From IMG/VR virus record IMGVR_UViG_2563366823_000003: 43,465 nt of DNA, one strand, 5' to 3'. Positions within the stretch are counted from its first letter, which is position 1. Each line of letters begins with the position of its first letter. Positions 9,336 through 43,123 of this stretch are shown one piece after another. Position numbers and translations under genes: made by a program. This stretch comes from a virus (Duplodnaviria; Heunggongvirae; Uroviricota; Caudoviricetes). Under the pieces are notes generated by a model. It was not told the origin of the DNA. It did no database searches and saw only the letters and a program-made list of their open reading frames with translations.

Positions 9336-9922
9336 TATCCGCCTCCCAGTAATGACGCCACGTTACCCGTGATGCTTTTCAGCAGTGAAGTATCTGGAGG
9401 CTTTGTGGTTTTGTTGCCGCTATTCTGTACCGCCGACGTGCTGGCCCCTTCCTTCATGTTGGTTTTATCCGCGACGGTAATCTGCTGTGTCCGGGAGATA
9501 AGGACCTCCCTCAGGGTGAGGACGGCGGACAGGACGTTTTCGGTTGTCTTGTCCGTCGTCACTTCCAGCGCCCGGATCAACATGTTGCTGTACAGTCGTT
9601 TACCGGTTACCACATCGAAGGGGATACGGCTTTCCTGCAGATCCAGTAGCTCCTGATACGTCTGCTGAGGACTCAGGCCGAGCAGGCTGGTAGCCGTCAG
9701 GTTACTGGCAAAATCCAGCAATGTGCCGCCACCGGCGAAACCAACCTCCATCACCACTTCTGACGGTTTTTTATAGGCATGATCAGCGACAGCAGCCCCG
9801 ACCTCTACCGGATGCTCGGTTATTTCAAGCATATCTGTATGCTTCTCTGAAATAACAACACCGGGAACAATCATTCCTATTTTTCTGCTCTGCTGATGAA
9901 AAAGTGTAGAGAGAATATCCAC
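9335..9922 (-). CDS. hypothetical tail protein (immediately downstream of tape measure)
   Basis: 195-aa ORF; its start abuts the tape-measure stop. Confidence 0.4.
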   Translation of the reverse strand: MDILSTLFHQQSRKIGMIVPGVVISEKHTDMLEITEHPVEVGAAVADHAYKKPSEVVMEVGFAGGGTLLDFASNLTATSLLGLSPQQTYQELLDLQESRIPFDVVTGKRLYSNMLIRALEVTTDKTTENVLSAVLTLREVLISRTQQITVADKTNMKEGASTSAVQNSGNKTTKPPDTSLLKSITGNVASLLGGG

Positions 9923-11910
9923 TAACCCACCCTCACCTGATTACTTCGCATGACCTGAGCATTTGCAGACTGTTGCCGACGTGCAACCTCATTACCGACA
10001 GCGTGCGGATCTCCGCCACCGTAAATGTGGTAGGTATTTTGCTGGTTAACCTCTGTCACTTTGCCACTAATTCCTGCCACGGCAGCCTTATTAATCAGCT
10101 CTCGGGAATAGATATTTCTTCCATTTTCATGCTGGATAATACTGCTCATCAATGCTGACATGGTTTGCGGATCGCTCATATTCAGGGCAGCCCGGGGATC
10201 CACTCCCAGTCGTTGCGATACAGCCCTGATATACGCAGTTGTGTTGTTATTATCAGACGCAGGTGCCCAGGTAGAGATAATTTTCTCCACACTGTTTATT
10301 CCCCGTCCGGCGTACAGCATTAACTGACGAGCAAGAGCCCGTAATCCATCAAAGGCAGTTTCAAATCTGGCAAATCGCCCGCCCGGGCGTTCAAGAGAAG
10401 CCCCTGCCTGACCAGCAAAATTAAGGTTTCCCGGATTGTTATTCCGTTCTCCTCGTTTCGTAGCCTGTGCATGTTGTTCCGGCTCATCATCACCAAACCA
10501 GCTGCGTACCGTCCGGCCCACGCTACGGGGCTCGAATCCCCAGTGCTCTTTAATCCAGTCGGCAGTACTGTTAGCGCTGTCTGTAACCATCGGCATCGCT
10601 GACGGATTTTCGCTGCCCTGATTAAGTATCTGTTTGCCGATGCTGACGGCATCATCCCAGCGGCCATCTTTGATAGCGTTGAGCAGGTCGGCGATCATGT
10701 TCAGCATTTTGCTGAATTCGCCCATCTGGTCGATGAAGTTGCTGAAATCCCACTTCAGGGACCATGATTTGGGGTCAATATTGAGTAGTTTCGCCAGCGC
10801 TTTCGCCAGGTCGTTAACGGTTGTTTTAAGGTCACGAACCATCTTCAACGCGGCATCGACCTCCGGTTTCCACTTGCCCCAGTCAATCAGGCTGTCGCCG
10901 CCTTCCTTCCAGGTCTGATAGTCCTCCCACAGAAGGGCAATCCCCGCCGCCAGCGCAGTAATGAGGCCAACCGGCGACATCCAGAACGTACTGTTCAGAA
11001 TGCGCAGCGCAATCGTCAGTGCGCCAAACAGCGAGATCAACTCCCGCGTTTGCTTATCCAGCGATTGCCACCAGGTGATGAGGCCTGATGTTCCTTCAAT
11101 CAGTCTGAAGAACAGCCGCCCGATAATATCCCCGAGCGCCAGAATGCCTTTTATGGCTTTCGTCAGGGTCTGCTCGATACGAGGGAAGTTGTCCAGGATA
11201 TGGCGGCGCAGGGTGTCCAGCGAACCCGCAAGCCCACCCGCAAGATTAGAGCCGATTTTGTCACGGGCCATGCCTGCCATCGCGCTAAACTCACGCAGGG
11301 AGGTCATAAATTTGTTGGAGCTTCTGGCCGCCTCGTCAGCATTGAAGCCGATAGCTTTCGCCATTGCGCTGTACTGCCCGGAGAAACCACCCACACCCCG
11401 ACGCATCGCCATAAGGGTATTTTCGTCAATGCCCAGCATCTGCGCATACTGGTTAGCCCGGTAATACGGCATACCGCTGAGCTTCTGGCCTACACCTGTA
11501 AAAATAGCGGCCATGTCACGCATGTTACCGCTGGCATCCCGTGTCTGTACCCCCAGACGATTCAGAAATCCCTCAGCCCCGGGGTTATTACGGATAAAAC
11601 GGGCAAGGCTCTCCAGTGACCCGCGCGCAGCGTCTGCACTGCCGCCAACCTGCGAAACCGCATAGCCAATAGACTGAATTCCATGGACCGTCGCGCCGGT
11701 GCGCTGTGACGCCCAGTAAAGATTATCCAGACCGGAGGCGATCTTAGCCGTGAAGGCCACCACGGACAGTGCAGTTCCTTCAACGGCCAGCCCCATTTTG
11801 ATGACATTTGCAGTTGTACCGGCGAGGACAGAACCGAACTTTTTCGCTCCTGCATCATCCACACTGAAGCCAAGCGAGACGAGGAAATCTTTAATAGTTT
11901 CAGCGTTCAT
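9922..11910 (-). CDS. tail tape measure protein
   Basis: ~663 aa, Ala/Gly-rich with predicted helical and TM-like central region, downstream of tube and chaperone genes; ATG 11910 with GGAGAGAGGA upstream. Confidence 0.8.
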   Translation of the reverse strand: MNAETIKDFLVSLGFSVDDAGAKKFGSVLAGTTANVIKMGLAVEGTALSVVAFTAKIASGLDNLYWASQRTGATVHGIQSIGYAVSQVGGSADAARGSLESLARFIRNNPGAEGFLNRLGVQTRDASGNMRDMAAIFTGVGQKLSGMPYYRANQYAQMLGIDENTLMAMRRGVGGFSGQYSAMAKAIGFNADEAARSSNKFMTSLREFSAMAGMARDKIGSNLAGGLAGSLDTLRRHILDNFPRIEQTLTKAIKGILALGDIIGRLFFRLIEGTSGLITWWQSLDKQTRELISLFGALTIALRILNSTFWMSPVGLITALAAGIALLWEDYQTWKEGGDSLIDWGKWKPEVDAALKMVRDLKTTVNDLAKALAKLLNIDPKSWSLKWDFSNFIDQMGEFSKMLNMIADLLNAIKDGRWDDAVSIGKQILNQGSENPSAMPMVTDSANSTADWIKEHWGFEPRSVGRTVRSWFGDDEPEQHAQATKRGERNNNPGNLNFAGQAGASLERPGGRFARFETAFDGLRALARQLMLYAGRGINSVEKIISTWAPASDNNNTTAYIRAVSQRLGVDPRAALNMSDPQTMSALMSSIIQHENGRNIYSRELINKAAVAGISGKVTEVNQQNTYHIYGGGDPHAVGNEVARRQQSANAQVMRSNQVRVG

Positions 11911-12142
11911 TATCCTCTCTCCATTTCTCAATGCGCCGCTGGTTATCCGCTTTTACCGCCAGATGGTCATTCAAAAGAGCAATATCGTACAAATCGACAG
12001 AGCCATCTTTAAGTGCTGTATAAGGAATTAACCCGGCGTCAACCGGATTGAGAAGGTAGGACAGCCCGTCCGGCAGGCTGTTAAACGTCAGCCCTGTTGC
12101 AGGCTCTGCGTCGTGCTGGTAAGGGGTGTAGGCAAAAAATTT
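11900..12142 (-). CDS. -1 frame extension of the tail assembly chaperone (G-T-like product)
   Basis: Heptamer A-AAT-TTT at 12136-12142 in the zero frame; the -1 frame stays open ~75 codons and stops at TGA overlapping the tape-measure start. Confidence 0.5.
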   Translation of the reverse strand, partial: KFFAYTPYQHDAEPATGLTFNSLPDGLSYLLNPVDAGLIPYTALKDGSVDLYDIALLNDHLAVKADNQRRIEKWREDNER

Positions 12143-12540
12143 CCCAGCGAATCGGCGACCACCCGCGCCACCAGATGAAGCATGACCAGCAGGTCAATAT
12201 CATCAAACATCAGTTCGCCCCGGGTAAATACCGGCACCCATCCGTCCATATGACGCCGCGACACCACCGCAAGACAGGGATGAATAATCGCATCGGTGTC
12301 ATCTTCGGTCAGGGAAGACAGTTCCTCAGCGATACGCGGGAGCATGGTTTCAAACACCGGTTTTAACTGCTCAAATTTCACGGTGTCGATTTTGCCGTCA
12401 GCAGGCAAACGGGAGCGAATGCTCCCGAAATCTGACATCATTCCCGCCAGTACCGGCAGAAGTTTGCGGGTCACTTTCAGCTGGTCAAAAACGCTGAGTT
12501 TTGCCACGCGATATTTCACGCCTTTGATTTCGAATTCCAT
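12088..12540 (-). CDS. tail assembly chaperone (lambda G-like)
   Basis: 150-aa ORF between tube and tape-measure genes with a slippery site near its 3' end. Confidence 0.6.
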   Translation of the reverse strand: MEFEIKGVKYRVAKLSVFDQLKVTRKLLPVLAGMMSDFGSIRSRLPADGKIDTVKFEQLKPVFETMLPRIAEELSSLTEDDTDAIIHPCLAVVSRRHMDGWVPVFTRGELMFDDIDLLVMLHLVARVVADSLGNFLPTPLTSTTQSLQQG

Positions 12541-12543
12541 GTA

Positions 12544-12984
12544 TTAAAACTCCCCGAGAACCTGGTCAATCTTGCCGCAGTCAAACACCCACGGCATCGT
12601 ATTACCGGTTTTAGCGTTGGCGTTATCCGGTTGTTTCTGGAACGCAACACTGCGTGCCGTGATGATGTCGCCGCTGACCTTGTTGCGGATCACGATAACG
12701 TTATTCCCCCATGTGGCAGAAGACTGGCTCTGTGCGTTATACGCCAGCGACAATTTTTTATTTGTCGGTGATGTCTTCAGAAGGTTAACGGTAATCGTCC
12801 CGCTTTTATCTGCATGGAGACTGTGCATCACTTCGCCATCAGCACCGATGGTCATGGTGTTTTTAGGACCGCCCATCGCAACCACAATCCCCTCTTCAGA
12901 ACTTGCCGAACCGTACCCGAGGTCAATCGAACCGGTCGGCCCGGTCAGCGTCGCAGTGACATCCATAAAAGAATAGGTAGACAT
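12544..12984 (-). CDS. tail tube protein
   Basis: 146-aa ORF directly downstream of the sheath gene. Confidence 0.55.
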   Translation of the reverse strand: MSTYSFMDVTATLTGPTGSIDLGYGSASSEEGIVVAMGGPKNTMTIGADGEVMHSLHADKSGTITVNLLKTSPTNKKLSLAYNAQSQSSATWGNNVIVIRNKVSGDIITARSVAFQKQPDNANAKTGNTMPWVFDCGKIDQVLGEF

Positions 12985-12994
12985 TCACTTCCCC

Positions 12995-14140
12995 TTAGCG
13001 AACAACGTTAATCAGTACGTCAGCGTAATGAACCGCGCCTGCAAGTTTTATTGCAGCCTGAATCACCGGGGCCTTACGGGCTTCACGTTCTGATTGTGCC
13101 TGTTCATCCAGCGGCTGGGCGTATACGTAATAACCTTTGGGCAGTGTGTCACCTGATGACAACTGACCAAGGTCGCCCCCGTTCCATACGCCCGGAGCAA
13201 TCAGTCCATTCTGAACGGCCTGATCCAGTGATTTTTCAACATTTGATAACAGTCGGGTAATACCGGCTTCAGTCTGGGGAACTTTCGTGGTGCTGGTATA
13301 AAGCAGGTTATAGAGGTTGGTCTGCACATAATTCTGTAACCAGTCCAGGCCGTGGCGTTCATCAAAGAAATCGCCGTTAGCCATCACTCCCTGCTGGAGG
13401 ATAGCTGTATCATTCTGGTAGTACACGAACACATTGCAGTTTTTTGCATCAAGTGCCGATGCCTGGCTGACTGTCAGTGTTTCATACCCGACACCCGGCT
13501 CCTGCTTAAACTTGAGCGTAATCGCGGTATTACTGCCATTGAAATTAACCGTGAATGCCCGGCCAAATGCAGATAACGCAGCGTATTTATTACCCGATGA
13601 ATACTGAATAAAACTGCGTGAATATCCGGCGGTTTTCAGTTTTGATGCCAAATCATCGCTGGATGCAGTCTGCAGGCATTTCTCATCGCTTGTCGTAATC
13701 GCCAGAATACGGCTTACAGAAGAGGATTCGATCGCCGCAGCCACTTTCAGCCAGTCTGCATCCGGAATATCTTCATCGTCTGCAATCCCCAGCCCATACC
13801 ATGAAGTATAATCGAGCATGGCATTCACAGCCTGCTCCAGCGTCTCAGGCGTGGCCTGTTCGCTGTCTCCCTTCGTTTTCACCCAACGACCAACAAAAAC
13901 CTCCTGAGGTTTCGGTGATTGTGAGAAAAACACCTGCGCAGCCTTATATTCTGGTGATTCCACGCCAAAATCTTTTCCAATATCTTCCGCGGCAGAATAA
14001 CGACGAATGCGCTCACTTACCGGAATGATTGTGGACGGGCCGAGAATGAGTAATGCACCAAAATTTCGCCCTGATGCTGCACGCGGCGACATGATCACAT
14101 CAACATTAACAACGTTTGATACAGGCAAGCCCTGTGCCAT
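12995..14140 (-). CDS. tail sheath protein
   Basis: 381-aa ORF upstream of the tube gene in a contractile-tail cluster. Confidence 0.6.
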
Positions 14141-27379: not shown

Positions 27380-27535
27380 TTACTCCTCAGGTTCGTAAGC
27401 TGTGAAGACAGCGACCTCCGTCTGGCCGGTTCGGATTCGTACCTCGCAGAGGTCTTTCCTCGTTACCAGTGCCGTCACTATGACGGTTAAACAGATGACG
27501 ATCAGGGCGATTAACATCGCCTTTTGCTGCTTCAT
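27380..27535 (-). CDS. hokD: Hok/Gef-family membrane toxin (type I toxin-antitoxin)
   Basis: 51 aa MKQQKAMLIALIVICLTVIVTALVTRKDLCEVRIRTGQTEVAVFTAYEPEE matches recalled HokD/RelF; hairpin-rich 3' UTR and in-frame upstream extension. Confidence 0.8.
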   Translation of the reverse strand: MKQQKAMLIALIVICLTVIVTALVTRKDLCEVRIRTGQTEVAVFTAYEPEE

Positions 27536-27677
27536 AGCCTGCTTCTCCTTGCCTTTCGGCACGTAAGAGGCTAACCTACATGTGCAAAGCATGAAATTGG
27601 CCTCAGATTAATGTTAAGCGTCTTGCCGGACGCGTAATGTTAACTGGGGCTTTTCTCTATCTGCCTTTGGTGTTCGT

Positions 27678-27717
27678 GCCCGAGGCAGATAGCCTCAAGC
27701 ACCCGCCGTGATTCTAC
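27678..27717. repeat. left copy of a ~40-bp imperfect direct repeat flanking the AT-rich cargo island
   Basis: gcccgaggcagatagcctcaagcacccgccgtgattctac versus gcctgagacagacaacctcaagcacccgcagcaattctac at 29698-29737, ~82% identity. Confidence 0.6.
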
Positions 27718-36171: not shown

Positions 36172-36571
36172 ATTCATTTCCTTACTGGTTGTGTGAGAAC
36201 TCCAGTAAAGATACCACCAAAGCCCGGAGGTGGTGAAATAAAACCGGGCACAACACGAAGGCGCATTTCTGGTATCCATAAAGAGTCGGTCTTGTCTGTT
36301 AAATTTAAATGGTGGGAGTGCGCCTCCGGTTGTAAATAACGACATTGCTTTGTGTAGTCTTTGGCGGCATCAGTTCTACTCCGTGGCTGCCCTGCCGCCC
36401 CTTTTTAAAGTGAATTTTGTGATGCGGTGAATGCGGCTAAGCGCACGCGGAACAGTTAAAAGCATCAGTGTTATGGGTGGATTATCCGGCGTTAATTGTT
36501 AACTGGTTAACGTCACCTGGAGGCACCAGGCACCGCATCGACAAAATTCATTTGTAAAAATGGAGATAATT

Positions 36572-40913: not shown

Positions 40914-41120
40914 ATGACAAAAATTATGAGATATGACGATGTTAAACCATGTCCGTTTTGTGGTTGTCCATCTGTTACGGTGAAAGCAATTTCAGGATAT
41001 TACCGGGCAAAATGCAACGGATGCGAATCCCGAACTGGCTATGGTGGAAGTGAAAAAGAAGCGCTCGAAAGATGGAATAAACGAACCACTGAAAATATTA
41101 ATGGAGGCGTTCATGTATAA
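40914..41120 (+). CDS. ralR: restriction alleviation protein Lar/RalR
   Basis: MTKIMRYDDVKPCPFCGCPSVTVKAISGYYRAKCNGCESRTGYGGSEKEALERWNKRT matches recalled Lar. Confidence 0.7.
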   Translation: MTKIMRYDDVKPCPFCGCPSVTVKAISGYYRAKCNGCESRTGYGGSEKEALERWNKRTTENINGGVHV

Positions 41121-41301
41121 AATTACTGCTACAATTGAAAAGGAAGGTGGCACTCCTACTAACTGGACAAGATATTCAAAATCTAAACTAACGAAATCAG
41201 AATGCGAAAAAATGCTCTCAGGGAAAAAAGAAGCAGGCGTTTCCAGAGAGCAGAAAGTAAAACTGATAAATTTTAATTGCGAGAAACTTCTGTCATCGTG
41301 A
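41113..41301 (+). CDS. small hypothetical protein (62 aa)
   Basis: ATG 41113 overlapping the lar stop; the track start upstream is non-ATG. Confidence 0.4.
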   Translation: MYKITATIEKEGGTPTNWTRYSKSKLTKSECEKMLSGKKEAGVSREQKVKLINFNCEKLLSS

Positions 41302-42731: not shown

Positions 42732-42863
42732 TTTTAACGTAAATGGATTGTTAAATGCATTTTGGTTGTGATATAACCAAAAAAGACCGGAATACAGAAA
42801 TTCGAGTAAATTTCGGGGAATTTCGGGGGAGACGTTTGCAACTGATTGATTTTAAATACAATT

Positions 42864-42898
42864 AAAAAAAGACCGAATACGATTCCTGTATTCGGTCC
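42864..42898. repeat. attR: right copy of the att core inside the sdsR terminator stem
   Basis: aaaaaaagaccgaatacgattcctgtattcggtcc matches 1068-1098. Confidence 0.7.
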
Positions 42899-42966
42899 AG
42901 GGAAATGGCTCTTGGGAGAGAGCCGTGCGCTAAAAGTTGGCATTAATGCAGGCTTAGTTGCCTTGC
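42864..42966 (-). ncRNA. sdsR: SdsR (RyeB) small RNA; antisense RyeA/SraC overlaps on the plus strand
   Basis: Minus-strand gcaaggcaactaagcctgcattaatgccaacttttagcgcacggctctctcccaagagccatttccctggaccgaatacaggaatcgtattcggtcttttttt matches recalled SdsR incl. terminator. Confidence 0.8.
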
Positions 42967-43123
42967 TCTTTAAGAATAGATGACGACGCCAGGTTTTCCA
43001 GTTTGCGTGCAAAATGGTCAATAAAAAGCGTGGTGGTCATCAGCTTAAATGTTAAAAACCGCCCGTTCTGGTGAAAGAACTGAGGCGGTTTTTTATTGGA
43101 AATCAAAAGGCTATTTTAGGTAA

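Follow-up and report, generated by a model that had tools for sequence, protein, structure and literature searches.

A very probable programmed −1 ribosomal frameshift in the tail assembly chaperone gene of an Escherichia coli prophage with a contractile tail

The stretch of DNA analysed here (IMG/VR record IMGVR_UViG_2563366823_000003; 43,465 nucleotides (nt), hereafter the window) comes from an Escherichia coli prophage with a contractile tail. Between its tail tube gene (12984..12544) and its tape-measure gene (from 11910), the window carries two overlapping open reading frames (ORFs), the second of which lies in frame −1 with respect to the first. All features of the putative frameshift are on the minus strand of the window. 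The first ORF (12088..12540, −) encodes a protein of 150 amino acids (aa), the short, 0-frame form of a tail assembly chaperone ("G"), and includes a TGA stop codon at 12090..12088. The protein matches the Pfam family PF21822 Phage_TAC_15 (1.8e-30) and the PHROG family phrog_1688, "tail assembly chaperone" (2e-61), and a homolog with 99.5% identity is named "phage tail assembly chaperone" by the Prokaryotic Genome Annotation Pipeline (PGAP). An earlier note on this DNA had called the gene a tail assembly chaperone, and both the family matches and the position between tube and tape measure bear this out.

The 3′ end of the chaperone gene reads TCG CTG GGA AAT TTT TTG CCT (S L G N F L P; CTG to TTG at 12147..12133). 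Direct reading of the 13-mer GGGAAATTTTTTG (12133..12145, −) revealed three overlapping heptamers of the X XXY YYZ type, all in frame: G GGA AAT (12145..12139), A AAT TTT (12142..12136), and T TTT TTG (12139..12133). A AAT TTT, which stands in the X XXY YYZ register of the chaperone, is followed by 15 sense codons and then the TGA, and T TTT TTG is located 14 codons ahead of the same stop. The −1 frame is open over 97 codons (12193..11903) and ends with a TGA at 11902..11900. A slip at A AAT TTT would add 78 codons (the "T" part, 11900..12136, −) and a slip at T TTT TTG would add 77; the predicted fusion product has 213 aa, and its junction would be ...GNFF-AYT... or ...GNFL-AYT..., according to the heptamer that slips. 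The extension contains a DUF6889 domain (PF21829; residues 173–211 of the fusion, 11909..12025, −), which was matched at 9e-20 on the whole fusion and at 1.2e-20 on the extension alone; phrog_4364 matches it at 1.4e-22. Both families are listed as being of unknown function. The −1 stop lies 8 nt inside the tape-measure gene (ATG at 11910..11908), and the two reading frames share the 11-nt overlap ATGAACGCTGA. An ATGA in this overlap region is out of frame, and there is no ATGA stop/start overlap.

The earlier note had taken A-AAT-TTT, 15 codons before the chaperone stop, as the canonical slippery heptamer, followed by a −1 frame open for ~75 codons and a TGA overlapping the tape-measure ATG. 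This heptamer does occur at that distance and in the correct register (on the minus strand, which the note left unstated), and its conservation, described below, supports it as a real element; the overlapping G GGA AAT and T TTT TTG heptamers, the latter better conserved, had been omitted. The length of the open −1 frame was close to the 77 or 78 codons found. The TGA overlaps the start of the tape-measure gene but not the ATG itself, being 8 nt downstream.

The slip site was compared among 80 species-level loci from the GTDB genome set, 80 IMG/VR loci, the window, and three phages (Mulock, SEN34, and YP3), which together reduce to 75 distinct 90-nt contexts with chaperone identities down to about 46%. 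Mulock, SEN34, and YP3, phages at 67–84% nucleotide identity, all carry an identical 13-mer. Codon use across the 75 contexts revealed GGA in 70 of 75 (background 9%), AAT in 71 of 71 (37%), TTT in 74 of 74 (54%), and TTG in 68 of 69 (12%). In a scan of all conserved residues, these four codons had the lowest synonymous entropy in the gene (0.44, 0, 0, and 0.11 bits, respectively, versus 1–2 bits elsewhere). The binomial p-values of the codon scan ignore phylogeny, and the proper control is therefore the neighbouring codons, which vary freely: the Asp codons are split 47:28, and eight different codons occur at the Ser position. Of the 75 contexts, 74 retain T TTT TTN, 70 retain A AAT TTT, and about 64 retain G GGA AAT. 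In four variants of the Erwinia/Kalamiella type, the Asn is replaced, the codon still ends in T, and T TTT TTN is retained. Only selection for the A with which A AAT TTT is completed can explain why GGA is fixed, and the G-ending Leu codon, which G GGA AAT needs, is only mildly enriched (91% versus 69%); the selected unit is thus A AAT TTT TTG. This codon pattern indicates that selection acts on the slip site at the nucleotide level.

The T-run is broken in a single relative, Salmonella enterica strain s1 (L024, CP191473), which reads GGA AAT ATT TTG (N-I-L) at this position and retains G GGA AAT together with an intact −1 ORF of 77 codons. Either this locus slips at the weakest of the three heptamers or it is a recently disabled prophage.

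The −1 frame is conserved as well. Its extension has 76–78 codons in nearly all of the 75 relatives, and beyond the chaperone stop it continues for 60–65 codons in nearly all contexts, compared with 2 to 60 codons for the +1 control. Openness of the −1 frame past the stop was discarded as a measure in its own right; in a packed operon it is uninformative, because the next gene often lies in that frame. At the protein level, conservation in the −1 frame begins at the first codon after the slip in 73 relatives, whereas the 0-frame tail after N-F-L is poorly conserved. The −1 consensus is ARTPRQRD...GLT.DSLPDG..YLL.PVDAG.IPY.ALKDGSVDL.DIA.MND.L..KADN..RI..WRE.NER. Within the overlap of the two frames, the most variable position is position 3 of the −1 frame, which is position 2 of the 0 frame. 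Over the 11 codons that separate the chaperone stop from the start of the ORF annotated by PGAP, the entropies at codon positions 1, 2, and 3 are 0.61, 0.48, and 1.46, a periodicity comparable to that of the DUF6889 core (0.77, 0.64, and 1.40). The −1 ORF of the window has neither an ATG nor a GTG, and no start codon is conserved across the relatives. The 11-nt overlap with the tape-measure gene is present in 48 of the 65 relatives with a recognisable ATG, and the two-frame arrangement occurs in 79 of the 80 IMG/VR prophages and in many enterobacterial genera. These comparisons indicate that the −1 frame is under purifying selection starting at the slip site. A few loci are decayed or rearranged: of two loci from Apirhabdus apintestini (CP138906), one has an early frameshift in the chaperone (L013) and the other has several frame breaks and a T5 run (L080); elsewhere, the −1 ORF is cut to 37 codons (L038) or extends over 256 codons (L063).

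Taken together, we consider it very probable that the tail assembly chaperone is subject to programmed −1 ribosomal frameshifting as in lambda G/GT and P2 E/E+E′. The G/G-T-type frameshift proposed in the earlier note is thus supported by the conserved slip site, the −1-frame domain, and the missing start codon, and the −1 frame, whose lack of conservation in related phages would have spoken against that proposal, is conserved in them.

Three other explanations were weighed. The −1 ORF could be an independent small gene for a DUF6889 family protein of ~54 aa, translated from its own start without any frameshift. RefSeq and PGAP do annotate, next to the chaperone, a separate 54-aa "DUF6889 family protein" (span 11900–12064, −), a trough of Shine–Dalgarno (SD)-like pairing occurs ~75 nt beyond the slip site, and roughly a third of the relatives have an ATG at extension codon 27–28. 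The start that PGAP assigns in the window is a CTG at 12064, however, and the 26 codons ahead of it are conserved as −1-frame protein from the slip site on, with the third-position periodicity given above. Conservation and periodicity upstream of any start refute independent initiation, which would also leave the synonymous constraint on GGA AAT TTT TTG unexplained; we regard this explanation as very improbable indeed, and homology-driven calling of ORFs on the frameshift extension seems to have produced the stand-alone PGAP ORF as an artefact. Nor do the comparative data leave much room for a fortuitous slippery run with a chance open −1 frame, or for a frameshift mutation in a once-continuous, decayed gene. 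It is true that the statistics of the single window are not decisive for the motif, since the 13-mer was matched with at most one mismatch in 18 of 100 shuffles and in-frame heptamers with Y = A/T occur at ~0.003 per codon, and that clearly decayed loci such as L013 and L080 exist. It is the comparative evidence, rather than these statistics, that places the motif beyond chance: the same site, arrangement, and extension length recur in 75 contexts and in 79 of 80 IMG/VR prophages, purifying selection acts on both frames in the segments expected, and the in-frame fusions found are only T7 variants of near-identical sequence. Chance or decay is effectively refuted by these comparisons, and its probability is close to nil.

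The remaining explanation, transcriptional slippage, is very unlikely as the main route and at most a possible minor contributor. RNA polymerase would add one U on the T6 run (A3T6), after which translation would proceed normally. The T-run is the most conserved element (74 of 75 contexts), T7 is found in 5 contexts, and recurrent T7 alleles in public assemblies show that the run is prone to indels at the DNA or sequencing level. In E. coli genes, runs of U7 and A7 are depleted whatever the frame, possibly as a result of slippage (PMC4066793), which also counts in favour of this route. Set against these points, GGA is fixed at 93% relative to a background of 9–19%; it is needed for re-pairing on A AAT TTT and irrelevant to polymerase slippage. 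The conserved SD-like element is a ribosome-directed signal, and in bacteria RNA polymerase usually slips productively on runs of about 8–9 or more. The P2 site TTTTTTG, moreover, is established as translational (PMC3091744).

Fusions of the chaperone and DUF6889 do occur as ordinary ORFs of 213 aa with an "FF" junction in public assemblies (P0001, P0121, P0122, and UniRef W1F673 with n = 10, the last being CDL28562.1 of E. coli ISC7). In the contig encoding P0001, the only one that was read, T7 replaces T6 (L005:1896–1909, GGGAAATTTTTTTG). An ancestral in-frame fusion of TAC_15 and DUF6889 was rejected, as the fused proteins are near-identical and the T7 run in L005 points to homopolymer indels or miscalls. 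Alternatively, the T7 fusions could be real alleles that produce only the GT form, in which case tail assembly would be expected to be defective by the lambda precedent.

Upstream of the slip site, a sliding anti-SD duplex scan against 16S rRNA revealed an SD-like GGGUGG (12159..12164, −), which is the strongest conserved anti-SD site in 430 nt. It is separated by 13 nt from G GGA AAU, by 16 nt from A AAU UUU, and by 19 nt from U UUU UUG. Its mean duplex energy is −7.06 kcal/mol, compared with −1.24 ± 1.66 kcal/mol gene-wide, and the energy is −5 kcal/mol or lower in 87% of 47 diverse relatives. GGGUGG results from the codons CGG GTG, both of which are favoured (Arg CGG 72% versus a 19% background; Val GTG 90% versus 51%). 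Sharma et al. searched for stimulatory SD sequences 6–17 nt upstream of the heptamer (PMC4066793). From its conservation and position, GGGUGG is a plausible upstream stimulator of slippage.

Downstream, the only solid hairpin is a stable one of 8 bp (ACAGCCUGCCGGACGGGCUGU, 12061–12081, −), which is located just past the chaperone stop within the −1 extension and overlaps the SD-like trough ~75 nt past the slip site. It lies ~52 nt beyond the slip site and is not conserved in distant relatives. As a classical stimulator, it was rejected as too distant.

Several points weigh against the frameshift reading or limit it. The support for the 213-aa product is wholly comparative. A downstream stimulatory structure, which the earlier note had suggested looking for, did not rise above background in the window or in 49 relatives: comparison of minimum free energies with those of shuffled sequences gave z = −0.14 and +0.47 for the 93-nt and 171-nt windows, and 70-nt tests in the 49 relatives (<90% identity) gave a mean z of −0.19 with a consensus fold of −0.7 kcal/mol. 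The absence of such a structure argues for a low efficiency rather than for the absence of frameshifting; it fits lambda and P2 and is no mark against a frameshift. The codons that form GGGUGG fall within an invariant R-V-V peptide in related sequences, and constraint on the protein as well as shared ancestry may account for part of their conservation. Of the two peptide patterns with which the genome loci were gathered, one, RVVADSLGN, spans part of the slip site; because it was back-translated degenerately, it introduces no bias on codon choice. Finally, the comparative data appear to favour the T-run as the slip position without fixing which heptamer slips.

From the comparative evidence, we infer that the slip is ribosomal, and likewise its codon pair, its frequency, its stimulation by the SD-like element, and what each of the two proteins does, as follows. 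Most ribosomes would produce the 150-aa chaperone and terminate at the TGA at 12090..12088. A minority would slip back by one base on A AAU UUU UUG (12142..12133), either on A AAU UUU (tRNA-Asn and tRNA-Phe) or on U UUU UUG (tRNA-Phe and tRNA-Leu) or on both, and would add 77–78 codons in the −1 frame, yielding the 213-aa fusion with its C-terminal DUF6889 domain. No downstream RNA structure would be involved, and base pairing of 16S rRNA with GGGUGG, 13–19 nt upstream, may make slips more frequent. The slip frequency would set the ratio of the two chaperone forms. By analogy with lambda gpG/gpGT, the shared N-terminal part may coat the tape-measure protein encoded directly downstream, and the rare C-terminal domain may recruit tail-tube subunits. 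As to the codons involved, motifs of the form H_HH.U_UU.Y, and thus A_AA.U_UU.U, are among the most efficient −1 motifs in E. coli, whereas U_UU.U_UU.G and G_GG.A_AA.U are outside the efficient class (PMC4066793). Most likely, ribosomes slip on A AAU UUU UUG at one or the other of two successive positions, and residue 136 of the product, F or L, would distinguish the two.

A close functional parallel is the E/E+E′ system in the FETUD tail operon of phage P2, in which a −1 frameshift at TTTTTTG, without a downstream structure, has been proven experimentally (Christie et al. 2002, cited in PMC3091744); the frameshift of the window is predicted by comparison. Comparison between the two loci revealed that (i) both belong to E. 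coli phages whose tails are contractile and whose tail genes run in the order sheath, tube, chaperone, and tape measure; (ii) T TTT TTG, encoding (G/N)-F-L, is located a few codons before the chaperone stop in both; (iii) the −1 extensions have 50–78 codons and end a few nt within the tape-measure gene, P2 E′ ending 8 nt inside gene T; (iv) both P2 E′ and the present extension contain the motifs SVD.L..A and I..WRE; and (v) a G-rich [KR]-V-V tract (GGUGGU) precedes the T-run in both, P2 reading AAG GTG GTC GGT TTT TTG (K V V G F L) and the window CGG GTG GTC. This tract lies ~4–6 nt from the heptamer in P2 and 13–19 nt in the window (L166:1660–1690 versus 12133–12167, −), and may be either an SD-like signal that both use or a leftover from a common ancestor. 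The two systems differ in their Pfam families (Phage_TAC_15 and DUF6889 in the window), in the length of the chaperone (150 aa versus 91 aa in P2), and in the slip site, which is here extended to A AAT TTT TTG with GGA fixed.

Sequence similarity to P2 was not significant by any of the methods used. No Pfam cross-match to the P2 families was obtained even at E ≤ 10, blastp against P2 gave E = 1.5, and hhalign, run with a G-T profile of 73 sequences against a P2-like profile of 14, gave P = 0.014 with a probability of 3.2%. The hhalign alignment places LPRI and the NFL/GFL slip codons in register, and a reversed control gave P = 0.5. The locus works like P2 E/E+E′, and homology of the families is not established. 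As the IMG/VR set of P2-like loci consisted of 80 loci 99–100% identical to P2, it was dropped, and 13 diverse GenBank phages were used instead. NNT TTT TTG is present in 10 of the 14 diverse P2-like phages. Escherichia phage 503458 (L257, CP025874) reads GTA AAT TTT, which contains A AAT TTT, and Mannheimia phage 587AP1 (L258) has G GGA AAG; both belong to the three types of heptamer found stacked in the window. We consider it possible, though doubtful, that the stacked run (A AAU UUU UUG, often preceded by G GG) and the upstream GGGUGG, in place of a downstream structure, give a G:GT ratio that is higher or more robust than one heptamer alone could set, and that Phage_TAC_15 with DUF6889 is a very divergent homolog of P2 gpE/gpE′ with an inherited slip position. 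If so, each ribosome would have two or three consecutive chances to slip, and the slip position would have been inherited across myovirus lineages beyond detectable similarity.

In lambda, gpG and gpGT are produced through a −1 frameshift at G GGA AAG (Levin 1993; Xu 2004, 2013, 2014, summarised in PMC5009743). Isoforms of the lambda type share one start, arise by a low-level −1 slip upstream of the tape-measure gene, and are both absent from the virion, and the G/GT arrangement is kept across long-tailed phages despite sequence divergence (PMC5009743). A G GGA AAN heptamer is present in lambda as in the window. Lambda, however, is a siphovirus with other protein families and its heptamer ends in AAG, a member of the efficient E. 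coli class, whereas the G GGA AAU of the window is outside that class and is the least conserved of the three heptamers.

A true homolog is found in phage Mulock (CPT_Mulock_014/015, MN098327), which shares with the window, at 67.8% nucleotide identity, the 13-mer as well as the 11-nt overlap with the tape-measure gene. Its GenBank record contains a coding sequence in two pieces, "tape measure chaperone frameshift product", across the homologous span. The frameshift is an annotation only, and the genome announcement (PMC6856289) does not mention it. An exact look-up of the two possible Mulock fusion sequences found neither in the collection searched, and the junction chosen by the annotators was not recovered. 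A conserved −1 frameshift with an invariant GTTTTT was argued in 2025 for the chaperones of Pakpunavirus/Vandenendeviridae and Andersonviridae (PMC12846349). Like the window, these phages combine a KPP10_Orf10 tube with a DUF3383 sheath, their downstream ORF is routinely mis-annotated as hypothetical, and the case rests on comparative conservation of the −1 frame. They differ in being virulent phages of Pseudomonas and Acinetobacter with a different motif context. Of the signals of the dnaX/IS911 type, the upstream SD-like tract has a match in the window (13–19 nt), whereas a downstream hairpin or pseudoknot 5–9 nt after the heptamer was not found. For the fusion protein, no solved structure or NCBIfam model was found, and an Rfam scan gave no family at the slip site.

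The genes around the slip site make up the tail module of a temperate phage with a contractile tail. The tail tube protein (146 aa, 12544..12984, −), encoded directly upstream of the chaperone, matches PF11681 KPP10_Orf10 (8.8e-61), a family also listed under Phage_Tube_PhiTE. It is preceded by the tail sheath protein (381 aa, 12995..14140, −), with matches to DUF3383 (3.5e-101) and phrog_205, "tail sheath" (2e-135). On the other side, the tape-measure protein (662 aa, 9922..11910, −) matches phrog_2276 (1.2e-281) and, weakly, PhageMin_Tail, and PGAP starts its homolog at the same ATG. Its C-terminal third, a region resembling lytic transglycosylases, matches the endolysin/transglycosylase PHROGs phrog_873 and phrog_7182, and the PGAP name is "lytic transglycosylase"; the gene encodes a tape measure with a fused cell-wall-degrading domain. 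Further downstream in the module are Dit-like, Pam3_gp18-like, and hub proteins.

The locus is present in 315 of 5,426 complete E. coli genomes (~6%), where it is chromosomal in every case. It was also found in induced Escherichia phages (97.5% identity), in Yersinia phage YP3 (84%), in Salmonella phage SEN34 (76%), and in Klebsiella phages including Mulock (68% nucleotide identity). Elsewhere in the window, Rfam matches above the gathering score comprise the RalA antitoxin sRNA (41119–41297, −), the SraC/RyeA–SdsR/RyeB pair (42860–43004, both strands), the sok antitoxin RNA (27530–27704, −), and DicF (36349–36400, +), and no tRNA gene was found in the window. The Rfam matches suggest an accessory region of the lambdoid type and a prophage end adjoining the ryeA/ryeB locus.

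The putative frameshift is an ordinary, well-supported addition to a long-known class, a homolog being already annotated as a frameshift in one GenBank record, and it leaves our knowledge of phage tail assembly unchanged. The stacked heptamers and the conserved upstream SD-like tract are modestly interesting details; as a natural example in which overlapping heptamers and an upstream SD-like element occur with no downstream structure, the site may serve as a test case for the rules of bacterial −1 frameshifting. The main value of the finding lies in annotation. The stand-alone DUF6889 ORFs of RefSeq, present in roughly 6% of the complete E. coli genomes as well as in many other Enterobacterales, should be joined to the chaperone upstream and annotated as a product of ribosomal slippage. 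On the comparative evidence, DUF6889 and phrog_4364 can be assigned as the probable frameshift-encoded C-terminal ("T") domain of the tail assembly chaperone.

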